64,000 bases of DNA from an uncultured Candidatus Peribacteria bacterium (GCA_964506115.1 CAZDKI010000004.1:13280-77279), one strand, 5' to 3'. Positions 47,627-53,983 are shown, counted from the first letter of the stretch. Made by a program: numbers and translations. The notes: a model not told the origin generated them from the letters alone.

Positions 47627-49096
47627 ATGGCTTCTAAGGTTGAAAGATCGCTTACAATTGCCGGGCCTGCACGAGGCGACACTATCACTGATGCCACTCA
47701 AGTAAATGAGAATGATACTCGAAGTGAGCTTGCTTCTGCAGTTCGTGCGCTACCTTCTTCGGTGATTGAGGCTAGAGCAAAAGTAGCAGCTGATCGCGAG
47801 AAAGAGTTAGATGCCTTGTTAGCTTTGCAAGCTGGACGGACTTTCGACGCTATGAAATTTTGGGAACAAGCAATAGCGCTATGTCCCCATCTTACTGATG
47901 ATGATATAGCGATGGTATTTAACTGTGGTTCTTATATAGCAGCCTATCCTCATTTGCGAGCAGCAATTATTACAGGTTCTGAAACTGTTACAGATAGTGC
48001 TGGTCGTGCTTCTGAAATTTATACTTTAGATCTCGCTTTAGGCAGCGGTGGAATGGGTGAAATTCGAGTCGTGGCCTTTCTTCATGATGGTATTCCTTTA
48101 GAGGCTGTAGTGAAATTGCCACTGTTCAACGTATTGCCTACTAACAAAAATGATCCTGAATATAGTACTCAGTTAGATGCTGCCGAGAGAGATAATCGCC
48201 ATCGAGAACAAATGTTTTTTCTGGAAGCTCATAATGCTCGTTGGTACTGGCAGGATAGTCAAGGAGTGGTTACAGCAATACCTCACGTAGTTACCCCCTA
48301 TATGGTAGCTCATTTTTTAGATCGTGATACTACGGGGGTTGTCTATGAGAAAATATTATGTCCATGGGGATATGTTTTGCCATTGGATCATATGAGTTTT
48401 TTTGATCCCAAAGTGGTTTCATCTTATCCACGAATCCATGTTTCCAAACAGTTGGAAGCACTTTCATTCGCCTTTGATGGTTTGGCTGGTATACATGCTC
48501 GGGGTTTAGCTCATATGGATTTTAAGCCTGGTCAGGTACTAGTAGATGAGCATGGTCAAGGAAAAGTAACTGATATTGGGTCTTTCGCAGAAGCACATGA
48601 AGTTTTTGAACTTCGTGTTGATAGTAAGAGTGGCTTATCACTTCTCTATCGTCAAATGCTGATGGATGATGGTAGTGTCACCTCAATTGGTTTACCAACT
48701 ACACCTGAGTATTATGATACTAAATTGGTAGTTGAATTAAATAATGCTGGGAAACCTAACTCTTTGGCAGATCGAAGAGCCGCAGGGTTTACTTTGTTGC
48801 AAACACTGGAAGATAATCACTTTTTAGCACCTAAAACCCGCCATAATTTACTGGCTGCAGCTAATAGCTCTCCTATAGCAGTTATACTGGGAAGTACTTA
48901 TGTCCTTCCAGATTCTTTAGAAAGGCTTTTACAAATTGCTCAGGAACTCATGGATGTTCATGCTGAACAGCAAAGACCTCTAGATGAGATCGCAGCAGAA
49001 ATCCGAATGTTGAAAGCTCAAATGGCTGTAGAGCTTGATCCGTTATTTGAGCAAGCTTATGCTGGTACTGGTGTAGTATGTGTTGCTGATTTTTAA
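47627..49096 (+). CDS. Hanks-type Ser/Thr protein kinase-like protein (diverged)
   Basis: Gly-rich loop GSGGMGEI, beta3 Lys AVVKLP, catalytic loop HMDFKPGQ, DFG equivalent VTDIGSF, TPEYYD (APE-like), and ADRRAAGFTLL. Confidence 0.65.
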   Translation: MASKVERSLTIAGPARGDTITDATQVNENDTRSELASAVRALPSSVIEARAKVAADREKELDALLALQAGRTFDAMKFWEQAIALCPHLTDDDIAMVFNCGSYIAAYPHLRAAIITGSETVTDSAGRASEIYTLDLALGSGGMGEIRVVAFLHDGIPLEAVVKLPLFNVLPTNKNDPEYSTQLDAAERDNRHREQMFFLEAHNARWYWQDSQGVVTAIPHVVTPYMVAHFLDRDTTGVVYEKILCPWGYVLPLDHMSFFDPKVVSSYPRIHVSKQLEALSFAFDGLAGIHARGLAHMDFKPGQVLVDEHGQGKVTDIGSFAEAHEVFELRVDSKSGLSLLYRQMLMDDGSVTSIGLPTTPEYYDTKLVVELNNAGKPNSLADRRAAGFTLLQTLEDNHFLAPKTRHNLLAAANSSPIAVILGSTYVLPDSLERLLQIAQELMDVHAEQQRPLDEIAAEIRMLKAQMAVELDPLFEQAYAGTGVVCVADF

Positions 49097-49105
49097 TTGT
49101 TTTTT

Positions 49106-49666
49106 ATGAACGATATTGAAGCTTTGGGACGAGTAAGTACATTAGTTTCTATCTATACCGGCTTGGGGCGTGATGCTCCTATGTCAGTGCAAACATTAGA
49201 TCCTGCTTCGTTACAAGATTTTAGAGCTGCTTTTCGAGCTATTGGTGAAGAGGCCTTGAGTCAAGAAGCATTACAAGCAAGAGTTGGAGGATCTTTGGAT
49301 GTTGATAATTTACCAGCTTACATCCTATCCAAATGGCAGCAAACTCTTGCTGAGCAGTTCTTTGATGGTAGTACCGTCCTTGTGGCTCCATTCCCTTGTA
49401 ATCTTAATGGTAAGGCTTATTCAAAAGATGAGGTGAAGCAAGGGAATCATATTCATGTCGTTGCTGTCGATGAATCTACTCGACATGGAGCACATGGTGA
49501 CAGTATGTTTGCAGTTTTACCTCAACAAGTTTGGTCTGCAGGCTCATTCAGAGCTAACTTTGATCGAGACACTGCTAATCAACGTATTGCTAATGCTGAA
49601 CACACTAGAAACTTCTTACGTGAGATACTAGCACACTTTAGGAGTGTGGCTGACATATTGAAGTAA
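49106..49666 (+). CDS. kinase-partner protein, family unknown
   Basis: Starts 9 nt after the kinase stop (a TTG at 49097 is adjacent to it). Shares VLVAPFPCN and AVLPQQVWSAG blocks with the 53477 protein. Confidence 0.55.
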   Translation: MNDIEALGRVSTLVSIYTGLGRDAPMSVQTLDPASLQDFRAAFRAIGEEALSQEALQARVGGSLDVDNLPAYILSKWQQTLAEQFFDGSTVLVAPFPCNLNGKAYSKDEVKQGNHIHVVAVDESTRHGAHGDSMFAVLPQQVWSAGSFRANFDRDTANQRIANAEHTRNFLREILAHFRSVADILK

Positions 49667-49732
49667 ACCTTGTTTTCAATAATCGAATGTGTTACTAAGT
49701 AAAGCCCGACGGCGTATTTTTAACTGATATTT

Positions 49733-51704: not shown

Positions 51705-51896
51705 AGTCGGGGGTGTTTATTGGTTAGTGATAAGGATGATTGGGCACACGTGATGCTCTACTACCAGTACTATACGCACGGATATATCGTTTGATCAATT
51801 TTTCTGCGCTATGATAGTGTCTTCGGCTCGGCATCTTCATGTGACGGAGTTGCTGGATTTGTGGTATAATTGTTGGATACCAAAAAATAAAAAGAC

Positions 51897-53480
51897 ATGT
51901 TGGAGCGACAGGGGCGGTCAGCACACGACACTATTCGAGACTTACCGAGGCCAACTACTGGTAGTAGTCAGCCAGTGCTAGCGGAGCTTGATGCTGCAGA
52001 TGTCACTGAGATTTTATCCCCTTTAACTCGAGCTCCCAACAGATCAGATCCTTCTCAGTCAGTTGTTACAGATGATGATGATCGTATTTTGACAGGGAAA
52101 TTTGCACCTACCAAGAAAGAGTTGAGTGCTACAGTCAGTGTGGATGTAGCTGCACAGCTTGATGCTCATGAGTGGCTTACAAAACTCAATGAAAGACGTT
52201 CGCAATTGGCTGCTTTGATTGATGAAATTCGGCCTGATGTTTCCAATTGGGCTCCTGAATTTGATCCTAATAAATACATTGGTCGATATCCCGCTTTGTC
52301 ACCTGAATTGGTACAGGTAGTGCTAGCCAATGGTGATGTTGTTCTCAACGATGTTGCTTTACGTGAGGCTCTCTGTATCGGTGGTGAGAGGGTGAGTGAT
52401 CGGAACGGGACTGAGGTGACTATCTATACTTTTGATTTCCTGGAGAATAATGCTGGGGTTATTGGTTGGGGGGGGATAGGGATAGTAAAGGATGGCTATG
52501 TACAAAAGGGAAAGAAATTGATTAGAGCTGCTATCAAAGAACCAATTCTTGCAGCTGAAAATGCTTCTAATGATGAAATAATGGCGCAGAACGGTCGTAT
52601 TGTTGGCTATCAGCGCGAAGCTTATAATGCCAGCAATTTATTGCAAGCTGATATTCCAGGGGTGGTCAAATGCTTGACCGTCACTGAACCAAGGTCCAAT
52701 GGCTTACCAATTATTGCCTATGAAAAAGTGGTGAATCGTGATCATAAGGTACAAAATGGTTGTGATTTTGCTGGAGATATCAATATCCCACCCTCACGAA
52801 AGTTAGCTGCGTTAGCTGATGTGATTGATACTGTTGCCAGGTGTCATGCTTATTCAGATGGTTTGGCTCATTGTGATATCAAGCCAGAAAACATTTTTAT
52901 GGGGTCTGATGACAAGCTCAAATTAGGTGATCCTGGCAGTGTCACCTCGGTGGGAGAAACGTTGACATATAGACTTTTAGATAAGCATCCAAACAAGGGT
53001 GAGCTCATTCGTAACTTTGTTGATAGCAATGGCCATATGGCAGATGAGGCTATTGGACTGACCCCCAATTTCGCCAATGTAAAAGACATTGCTAAGGCTT
53101 GTGAGGATGGTCATGATATCCGCATCGCGGATCGAAGAGCATTGGCAGTGACTTTAGTTGATGTTCTCCAATTGGCGCATGTTTTTAGTGGCGGTACTGC
53201 CGAGTGGAGAGATCCAGAAATCTATTATGTATCCGATGTGAAAAAGGCATTGCCAACTGCTGAACGTAATAAGTTTTTATCACTCGCATTACAACAGGTA
53301 ATTGTCCTTATCAAAGAATTGGGTAATATAAACGTGCCCGTAAAAAACTTACGGCCACTTACAGCCATTGCAAGTGATTTAAGAAAGTATGCTGAGCAAT
53401 GTAAGGGACCTGATGAATTAGATAGTGTATATCAAATCTATAGAGATTCTATTCAGTCCAATCTTAACCAAACTTTATGA
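51897..53480 (+). CDS. Hanks-type Ser/Thr protein kinase-like protein (paralog of 47627)
   Basis: GWGGIGIV, AAIKEP, catalytic loop HCDIKPEN, KLGDPGS (DFG-like), LTPNF, and ADRRALAVTLV. Confidence 0.7.
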   Translation: MLERQGRSAHDTIRDLPRPTTGSSQPVLAELDAADVTEILSPLTRAPNRSDPSQSVVTDDDDRILTGKFAPTKKELSATVSVDVAAQLDAHEWLTKLNERRSQLAALIDEIRPDVSNWAPEFDPNKYIGRYPALSPELVQVVLANGDVVLNDVALREALCIGGERVSDRNGTEVTIYTFDFLENNAGVIGWGGIGIVKDGYVQKGKKLIRAAIKEPILAAENASNDEIMAQNGRIVGYQREAYNASNLLQADIPGVVKCLTVTEPRSNGLPIIAYEKVVNRDHKVQNGCDFAGDINIPPSRKLAALADVIDTVARCHAYSDGLAHCDIKPENIFMGSDDKLKLGDPGSVTSVGETLTYRLLDKHPNKGELIRNFVDSNGHMADEAIGLTPNFANVKDIAKACEDGHDIRIADRRALAVTLVDVLQLAHVFSGGTAEWRDPEIYYVSDVKKALPTAERNKFLSLALQQVIVLIKELGNINVPVKNLRPLTAIASDLRKYAEQCKGPDELDSVYQIYRDSIQSNLNQTL

Positions 53481-53983
53481 TGAGATTACTCAATTTGAAT
53501 GAAGGACAAGCTTCTATACACGAATTCCGCGATCGTGCGGCTTATGCTAAAGCTAAACTGACTGGTTTGCGCGAAAAGATTGTACCACCAGGGTATGTGG
53601 ATGCTATCCAGGAACTATTGCAGCCAGATTTTAAGGATGCAGCTTGGACAGCCTTTGTGCGCAGAGCAACTGAAATGGTGGAATCGATGTCATCCAATGC
53701 TGGTTCGTTGAGTATGGTGATGGTCGTGTTACCATGTTCATTTACTCCTCTAATGTGGGAGAAAGGTGATTTAGTAGCTGGAAAACACTTCGGTCTTGTT
53801 CATTATTCGGTGGATCAATGGCAGGCGAGTGAACCGGTCATTGCGGCTATCCCTTCAGTGGTATGGCAAGCAGGAAAGATTGATTTGCCTGCGAACATAG
53901 CTGAAAGATCTGCAGCGTTGACTGCAGGACTGGAGTTGGCAAGAACGAAGCTTAAGGGTTTATTGAATACACAGAATCTGTAA
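53477..53983 (+). CDS. kinase-partner protein (paralog of 49106)
   Basis: ATGA overlap with the kinase stop. Shares VMVVLPCSF and AAIPSVVWQAG blocks with the 49106 protein. Confidence 0.55.
   Translation: MMRLLNLNEGQASIHEFRDRAAYAKAKLTGLREKIVPPGYVDAIQELLQPDFKDAAWTAFVRRATEMVESMSSNAGSLSMVMVVLPCSFTPLMWEKGDLVAGKHFGLVHYSVDQWQASEPVIAAIPSVVWQAGKIDLPANIAERSAALTAGLELARTKLKGLLNTQNL

Follow-up and report, generated by a model that had tools for sequence, protein, structure and literature searches.

The stretch of DNA analysed here (the window) is 64,000 nucleotides (nt) from an uncultured Candidatus Peribacteria bacterium (GCA_964506115.1, CAZDKI010000004.1:13280-77279), of the phylum Peregrinibacteriota in the candidate phyla radiation (CPR). 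A cluster of ten genes in the window is bounded by a tRNA-Met gene and a tRNA-Thr gene. Two modules in this cluster each consist of a diverged Hanks-type serine/threonine kinase gene and the gene for a small partner protein that follows it. Their positions and lengths in amino acids (aa) are:

47627-49096, plus strand: K1, type-1 diverged Hanks-type Ser/Thr kinase, 489 aa
49106-49666, plus strand: P1, type-1 partner, 186 aa counted from the ATG at 49106; identical to P0001
51897-53480, plus strand: K2, type-2 diverged Hanks-type Ser/Thr kinase, 527 aa
53477-53983, plus strand: P2, type-2 partner, 168 aa; identical to P0005

A first-pass annotation of the window had placed four open reading frames (ORFs) at these positions, and all four were confirmed, as were the two gene junctions that it described. 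The stop codon of K1 is the TAA at 49094-49096, which is abutted by an in-frame TTG at 49097. The ATG used in public gene calls for P1 is at 49106, leaving a 9-nt gap after K1. At the junction of K2 and P2, the two genes share the four bases of an ATGA overlap (53477-53480). This overlap is not kept in relatives, where the gaps between kinase and partner genes are 4-49 nt.

The kinases and their partner proteins

K1 and K2 are paralogous over nearly their whole length. Direct comparison with blastp gives 24.7% identity over 425 aa (E 4e-17), and profile comparison with hhalign gives a probability of 99.4% (E 4e-21) spanning residues 87-475 of K1 and 132-513 of K2. The likeness therefore takes in some 45 residues on the N-terminal side of the Gly loop as well as the C-terminal tail, which agrees with the initial claim that the two share more than the generic kinase core. 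The motifs listed at that time, GSGGMGEI and GWGGIGIV, HMDFKPGQ and HCDIKPEN, DIG and DPG, and the ADRRA block, are all present and align with one another. The ADRRA block is subdomain IX (D-x-W-S-x-G). K1 has a helical N-terminal region of about 130 aa before the kinase domain, which carries GSGGMG, VVK, HMD-K-Q and DIG. K2 has an acidic coiled-coil N-terminal region of about 175 aa, followed by a kinase domain with GWGGIG, AIK, HCDIKPEN and DPG.

Both proteins score under the 31.7-bit gathering threshold of Pfam Pkinase (PF00069), at 31.4 bits for K2 (E 1.7e-7) and 22.4 bits for K1 (E 9e-5). Compared with a generic Hanks profile, the profile of their family (the K family) gives an hhalign probability of 99.7% (E 2.4e-25, 261 columns). 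The best matches of K2 among PDB sequences are Myt1, GCN2 and PERK, at E 4e-6 and weaker, in the catalytic segment. Hanks-type kinases, such as PknB, and the K family have in common the Gly loop, the VAIK Lys, the alphaC Glu and H-x-D-x-K-x-x-N in the same order, as well as the DFG Asp, the TP(E/N)(Y/F) segment and the subdomain IX Asp, located in the ADRRA block. The Gly loop, K214, E241, D327, K329, N332 and D345 are retained in 13-14 of the 14 K-family members. The single systematic catalytic change is Asn to Gln, confined to the K1 clade of the window and the related locus L003. Judged by these residues, K1 and K2 look like active, catalytically competent kinases.

There are also consistent differences from the Hanks-type kinases. 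Position 326 in the 14 members is C, M, L, G, F or N and never Arg. Since the Arg of HRD is never present, the K family is of the non-RD type, lacking the Arg-Asp (RD) pair; this makes it a subclass within the kinase fold and does not exclude it from the fold. DFG becomes D-(P/I/F/L)-(G/A), the Gly loop is preceded by an element of the family's own, LR.AL..GGE...D..G...YT(L/F), and ELDP(L)(Y/F) closes the C-terminal tail. Unlike the known Hanks-type kinases, the K family has no PASTA, transmembrane, FHA or other known accessory domain, and its genes are followed by a P gene. Pfam and sequence scans of K1 and K2 detected no transmembrane segment, signal-like N-terminus or known accessory or sensor domain. 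In Pfam there was likewise no HipA match, the kinase families matched being Pkinase and, weakly, ABC1. On sequence grounds, the K family is a distinct non-RD subfamily of the known kinase superfamily. Bacterial Hanks-type kinases are usually controlled through fused sensor domains or through phosphorylation of the activation loop, and non-RD kinases are not switched by activation-loop phosphorylation.

The partner proteins were harder to relate to each other. Direct comparison of P1 with P2 is marginal (blastp 27% identity over 89 aa, E 7e-4; hhalign E 4e-4, probability 35%). Of the sequence blocks that had been proposed to link them, V(L/M)V.(F/L)PC is shifted by one residue in P1 (VLVAPFPC, against MVMVVLPC in P2). 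Word-indexed searches with P1, P2 and K2 reached the close clade only, with 4-5 clusters each, the searches for P1 and P2 covering 5.8 billion proteins. The distant members surfaced only when 1.84 billion representatives were searched exhaustively in HMMER with a joint partner profile. This search gave 18 matches, of which 15 are genuine, being proteins of 150-189 aa or a fragment of one. The other three (P0021, P0027 and P0028) are long, internally repetitive and of low complexity, and were discarded.

Once this wider family is added, the paralogy of the partners becomes significant, with type 1 matching type 2 at an hhalign probability of 98% (E 2e-13). Profiles built with a clade left out support the same relationship. 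The type-2 profile finds P1 of the window at E 1.7e-10 and the type-1 profile finds P2 at E 0.0099, with all of the real members placed above 2000 shuffled decoys. The homology of P1 and P2 is secure, and together with their relatives they make up one small family. This family is of no recognised kind, as was noted at first pass, since there is no significant match to it in Pfam, NCBIfam, PADLOC or PDB sequences.

An AlphaFold2 model of P1 based on a 21-sequence alignment has a predicted local distance difference test score (pLDDT) of 92.6 and a predicted template modelling score (pTM) of 0.88; an alignment of nine close sequences alone gave a pLDDT of 38. The predicted structure combines helices at the N-terminus, a small sheet made up of strands 90-95, 116-122 and 147-149, and a long helix at the C-terminus. 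Foldseek searches with this model found nothing meaningful, the best PDB match having E 0.97 with TM scores of no more than 0.27 and the best BFVD match E 2.2. No DNA-binding domain or recognisable antitoxin fold was found in the partner by Pfam, NCBIfam, PADLOC, PDB sequence or Foldseek comparison. The partners are mildly acidic to near-neutral, with isoelectric points (pI) of 5.6-6.8. The model thus describes a soluble alpha/beta protein of 150-195 aa that has a confidently predicted fold and no detectable structural relative in PDB or BFVD.

Only two columns of the partner family are invariant, P97 and P139, while M1, A42, C98, G113 and H115 are nearly so. C98 and H115 were considered as a catalytic Cys-His dyad, and this was rejected. 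The Cys is missing in P0022, P0026 and L044_194 and the His in P0016 and L044_194, and such replacement in several members makes a Cys-His enzyme site unlikely. Derivation of the partner from part of the kinase, by analogy with HipS and HipA, was also rejected (hhalign of P against K, p 0.02-0.55).

Pairing in relatives and the wider conserved unit

Co-occurrence was assessed in those partner lineages found on contigs with upstream sequence, the ORF upstream of the partner being scored with hidden Markov models of the K family. A kinase of this same subfamily lies directly 5' of the partner gene in 11 of the 12 partner lineages, at a spacing of -4 to +49 nt, so that the partners do stand next to kinases elsewhere, as the first-pass annotation had expected they might. 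Both modules are present in the window and at L003, L006 and L044. The other loci with the pairing are L033, L035, L037, L038, L039, L042/L041, L046 and L048. At L046 (5-5116), the kinase domain is the C-terminus (residues 1344-1682) of a protein of at least 1703 aa, and the partner gene is still the next one. The partner gene of L046 is itself followed by a gene for a long coiled-coil-like protein.

Neighbour-joining trees of 11 kinase-partner pairs have the same split into type 1 and type 2 for the kinases and for the partners, and the two distance matrices are correlated (Mantel r 0.85, p 1e-4). This congruence indicates that the whole module was duplicated once, long ago, and that there has been no exchange of partners since. 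The adjacency of kinase and partner is therefore recurrent and co-divergent. It could be argued, as a general caution, that the evidence for coupling is all genomic, and that two orphan genes simply came by chance to follow paralogous kinases. Such meaningless adjacency is hardly credible, given that the pairing is found in 11 of the 12 lineages, with partners as little as about 20% identical, and that the trees are congruent. The pairing also survives fusion of the kinase to a giant protein and the placing of the modules at different loci.

Three further genes lie between the two modules:

49733-50770, plus strand: M, 345 aa, conserved third component, candidate degenerate kinase-fold protein
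50838-51314, plus strand: S, 158-aa orphan; alternative TTG start at 50772
51297-51704, minus strand: EVE-domain protein, 135 aa; Pfam EVE PF01878

The conservation of M, the membership of the EVE gene in the conserved unit and the fast protein evolution of the whole cluster go beyond what had been described before. L044, a distant relative, keeps the order K-P-M-EVE-K-P with the EVE gene on the minus strand. Its proteins are 20-34% identical to those of the window, and 61% identical in the case of the EVE-domain protein. Homologues of M are located directly after a kinase-partner pair at L003, L042 and L044, and near one at L035.

Comparison of M with the generic Hanks profile gives an hhalign probability of 58-60% (p about 1e-4), against p 0.2-0.5 for negative controls. 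The alignment is colinear with residues 63-275 of PknB, from alphaC to the end of the C-lobe. Comparison with the K family gives hhalign p 0.0014-0.008, and the sole match of M among PDB profiles is a weak one to the pseudokinase TRIB1 (E 1.8). Where kinases have HRD....N, M has H..G..(V/I)GE....N, and the VAIK lysine is missing. With HRD replaced by (V/I)-G-E and the VAIK Lys lost, M is a candidate pseudokinase. The M orthologue of L006 (Peribacteria metagenome-assembled genome CAZXKW01, 1502-2362) is shortened to 286 aa and has an unrelated C-terminal tail, which is either the result of a frameshift, making it a pseudogene, or an assembly error. The M homologue of L035 is split into ORFs of 133 aa and 209 aa.

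Orthologues of S are present at L003, L004 and L006 at 45% identity, in the close clade only, and S is absent from L044. S was considered as the partner paralogue of a third module and rejected, being unrelated to P, to K or to the family of the upstream orphans A444 and B320 (hhalign p 0.08-0.8). A444 and B320 were likewise rejected as further partner paralogues, in the same range of p values (0.08-0.8).

The EVE gene matches PF01878 at E 4.6e-50 and 169.8 bits (cutoff 23) over residues 2-131 of 135, a full-length match such as is seen in stand-alone EVE (PUA-like) proteins. The EVE domain is a reader of modified nucleic-acid bases. The gene has the same position and orientation at L003, L006, L035 and L044. 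It is transcribed divergently from K2, and its 3' end overlaps the 3' end of the convergent gene upstream, which is S in the window (18 nt, 51297-51314) and M at L044 (38 nt, 3737-3774). Since both have it, this convergent overlap at the 3' end of the first operon is a conserved feature too.

Evolutionary rate, distribution and possible roles

Rates were compared between the window and its L003 orthologues, as nonsynonymous (dN) and synonymous (dS) substitution. The flanking housekeeping genes have 92-99% aa identity, dN 0.01-0.05, dS 0.71-1.02 and dN/dS 0.01-0.07. The genes of the cluster have 45-84% aa identity, dN 0.10-0.46, dS 0.72-1.55 and dN/dS 0.10-0.36. Their dN is thus about 2- to 12-fold above that of the flanks, with S being the fastest gene (dN/dS 0.36). 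The fastest segments are residues 1-170 of K2 (dN/dS 0.51) and the N-terminal halves of the partners (0.31-0.44), while the kinase core of K2 is constrained (0.09). Since dS equals that of the flanks, the cluster is as old as they are and has been vertically inherited. The higher dN points to relaxed or partly diversifying selection, and dN/dS values below 1 indicate that every gene of the cluster is under purifying selection and is functional. Such an excess of amino acid change, with dS no different from that of the flanks, makes the locus a candidate for evolutionary conflict.

The locus is restricted to a small uncultured group whose only named member is Candidatus Peribacteria. The family is found in 1 of 185,579 GTDB species representatives and at one metagenome locus of the Joint Genome Institute (JGI). 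No copy was found in IMG/VR or in phage or plasmid collections. In PADLOC-DB 2.0, the best matches of K1 and K2 are PD-T4-6 and mad6 (E 1e-6 to 7e-9), covering the generic N-lobe and catalytic segment only. In the same database there was no match for P1, P2, M, S, A444 or B320 and no complete defence system. The NUDIX hydrolase gene of the cluster (47078-47578) matches the candidate family PDC-S07 (E 2e-13), and the EVE-domain protein matches PDC-M11A weakly over 35-60 residues.

These results bear on the options that had been suggested for a duplicated, tightly coupled pair. The description as paralogous, tightly coupled kinase-partner modules stands, and more firmly than it was first put. 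The toxin-antitoxin option does not fare as well. In a toxin-antitoxin or abortive-infection pair the kinase would be a growth-arresting toxin, the partner its antitoxin and the EVE-domain protein a sensor of modified foreign nucleic acid. Such a role would be consistent with the tight coupling, with the duplication of the module and with the rapid protein evolution relative to the flanks, as is common for conflict genes. It would also fit the EVE neighbour, the domain being frequent in defence contexts (PMC7641849), and the weak matches to the defence kinases PD-T4-6 and mad6. However, these matches extend over the generic catalytic segment only, and the partners, M and S match nothing in PADLOC. 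The dS of the cluster equals that of its housekeeping flanks, which indicates vertical inheritance, the locus has the same tRNA-bounded position in relatives, no mobile copies are found, and its occurrence in a single species representative is unlike that of mobile toxin-antitoxin or defence genes. In addition, the partner has no DNA-binding domain and is located 3' of the kinase, which is not HipA-like. A toxin-antitoxin role is therefore decidedly unlikely, and is disfavoured relative to a kinase-subunit pair.

HipBA and HipBST resemble the modules in having a kinase gene tightly coupled to a gene for a small protein, with multiple paralogous copies possible in one genome. The fold of HipA and HipT is not of the Hanks type, however, and K1 and K2 have no HipA match in Pfam. 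The Hip antitoxins are helix-turn-helix (HTH) or HipA-N-subdomain-like proteins encoded mostly upstream, whereas here the partner is downstream and has no structural neighbour. Hip modules are widespread and mobile, in contrast to this vertically inherited locus of a tiny clade. Of the two systems that supply the best PADLOC matches for K1 and K2, MADS has other components that are absent here and PD-T4-6 is a single-gene system without a P-like partner.

A further option is that the kinase is an exported effector and the partner its cognate chaperone or immunity protein, with which a CPR cell living as an episymbiont would act against its host or competitors. The proteins are fast-evolving and lineage-restricted, in a group with a proposed host-associated lifestyle, and the N-terminal regions of the kinases change fastest, as seen in residues 1-170 of K2. 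The mildly acidic to near-neutral partners would also be in keeping with this. On the other hand, no signal peptide or transmembrane segment was found, there are no secretion-system genes in the locus or among the scanned flanking genes, and Pfam detected no toxin-delivery domains. The arrangement with a second pair, M and an EVE gene is without precedent for effector loci. Export as an effector is thus very improbable.

The reading that is favoured, while falling somewhat short of being probable, is that each module is an operon of a cognate kinase and a dedicated, non-enzymatic partner subunit with a regulatory or adaptor role. It is favoured because the kinase looks active without a sensor domain or RD-type control, and because the partner is compact, folded, encoded at translational-coupling distance from the kinase and co-diverged with it. 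Each module would be a two-gene operon for a soluble, sensor-less non-RD kinase and its cognate small protein. Genomic context suggests that the partner would form a stoichiometric complex with its own kinase and serve it as a dedicated subunit for regulation or specificity, and it may act as an activator, an inhibitor or a substrate adaptor. It would thereby replace both the activation-loop control that is absent in non-RD kinases and the sensor domains. An ancient duplication generated the type-1 and type-2 pairs, which have since co-diverged without swapping partners. M, probably an inactive kinase-fold protein, could serve as a scaffold or decoy. Both pairs, M and the EVE gene together constitute one conserved, chromosomally inherited locus that is fast-evolving at the protein level. 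The direction of regulation and the roles of M and the EVE-domain protein are likewise suggestions.

Eukaryotic kinases that become active on binding a pseudokinase, an adaptor or a small subunit include those of LKB1-STRAD-MO25 and CDK-cyclin. The trio of K, kinase-like M and small P is formally similar to these and may be used as a working analogy only, as neither sequence nor structure relates them, P has no match in PDB and the fold of M is a candidate assignment.

Several observations weigh against the subunit reading. The binding of kinase and partner is deduced from genomic context only, and congruent trees are also expected from plain co-inheritance of neighbouring genes. Fast protein evolution and an EVE neighbour fit a conflict system at least as well as they fit housekeeping signalling. 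The assignment of M to the kinase fold from its sequence is somewhat probable and no firmer than that. The two modules are on different contigs in GCA_016207805.1, so that linkage of both pairs is frequent and not obligatory. Finally, partner P0014 (L034, 1-939) follows an EVE gene with no kinase between them, on a contig of 1.1 kb. This EVE gene is on the same strand as P0014 and ends 111 nt upstream of it, an arrangement that could represent either a strengthened link between EVE and partner or loss of the kinase.

The same adjacency and co-divergence would be seen if the modules were dedicated kinase-substrate pairs, in which the partner is the main phosphorylation target and its phosphorylation state carries the signal, as in partner-switching modules. 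In the partner, the PC..NG block is followed by a conserved aromatic residue, and a Ser or Thr is common right after it. However, no Ser/Thr column is invariant across the partner family, this one included, and the residue is part of an S/T-x-x-E at the start of the predicted helix 107-111, where it looks like a helix cap. A role for the partner as substrate is possible, though unlikely on this evidence.

A broader alternative to the subunit reading, also to be regarded as a minority possibility, is that K-P-M-EVE-K-P is an undescribed, fast-evolving conflict or host-interaction system of CPR bacteria of the Peribacteria type. This would combine two non-RD kinases, each gated by its cognate partner, a pseudokinase scaffold or decoy and an EVE-domain protein sensing modified DNA or RNA of phage or host. 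If so, the fold of the partner family would be new, and its members would be kinase regulators or immunity proteins of a new class.

The K subfamily lacks a sensor domain and RD control and is instead paired with a dedicated small protein whose predicted structure is confident and without neighbours. Should the pair form a complex, both this way of controlling a bacterial kinase and the protein fold would be new. CPR bacteria, the biology of which is mostly inferred from gene loss, would then also have in it one of their few defined lineage-specific modules of signalling or conflict. In the literature searched there was no description of the partner family, its predicted fold, the obligatory pairing or the K-P-M-EVE-K-P arrangement. 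The survey of EVE neighbourhoods mentions kinases once, as sensor histidine kinases, and has no mention of CPR, Patescibacteria or Peregrinibacteria (PMC7641849).

Boundaries and neighbouring genes

The remaining features in and around the cluster are as follows:

44354-44429, minus strand: tRNA-Met, left edge of the fast-evolving cluster
44745-46079, plus strand: A444, 444-aa orphan in the 5' part of the cluster
46100-47062, plus strand: B320, 320-aa orphan preceding the NUDIX gene
47078-47578, plus strand: NUDIX hydrolase, between B320 and K1
47578-47606, plus strand: promoter-like site, GAGACA-17-TATAAT, 10/12, 21 nt 5' of the K1 start
51841-51870, plus strand: promoter-like site, GTGACG-18-TATAAT with TG extension, 10/12, 27 nt 5' of the K2 start
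54058-54132, plus strand: tRNA-Thr, right edge of the cluster, in the same place after P2 at L003 and L006

Both promoter-like sites are suggestive only, because the total number of such sites in the region is not above shuffled expectation. The cluster is flanked by ordinary chromosome. Upstream are genes for a HerA-like ATPase, an SLH/CAP wall protein, a PD-(D/E)XK nuclease, holA, DivIC and an RlmI-like methyltransferase, and downstream are genes for a glycogen synthase and a GH57 enzyme.

The edges of the cluster differ between the window and L003. The tRNA-Met equivalent of L003 (6606-6681) is on the plus strand, against the minus strand in the window, which indicates local rearrangement at the left edge. 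At the right edge, a large serine recombinase gene with Resolvase and Recombinase domains (L003 14936-16665, minus strand) overlaps the 3' end of the tRNA-Thr after P2. The genes beyond it differ from those of the window, and the element appears to have integrated at tRNA-Thr at L003 and is absent from the window. Because it sits beyond the tRNA-Thr, the recombinase was rejected as a member of the cluster and is seen as a separate insertion.

The upstream orphans also vary, with proteins of 444 and 320 aa in the window against 247 and 269 aa at L003, despite the 92-99% identity of the housekeeping flanks. The NUDIX gene is missing from the corresponding position of L003, and a second NUDIX gene is present in the window at 37073-37519. 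No match was found for A444. B320 matches A247 of L003 (hhalign 95%, E 2e-8) and, more weakly, B269 of L003 and L035_277. The genes at these upstream positions (window 44745-47062; L003 6748-8423; L035 3768-4601) make up another paralogous family of orphans, with the shared C-terminal motif (I/V)F(I/V)P...(K/R)(I/F/L)P.(N/H)PPW.

Downstream of the cluster, two paralogous genes for 23S rRNA intervening-sequence proteins (PF05635) are located 3 kb apart at 54299-54658 and 57753-58115. Another PF05635 copy is near the kinase-partner module of L041. Elsewhere in the window, a 515-aa ORF (32754-34301, minus strand) encodes an unusual fusion, in which an XRE-type HTH (PF01381, E 1e-16) at the N-terminus is joined to a full-length EPSP-synthase/MurA-type domain (E 2e-45).

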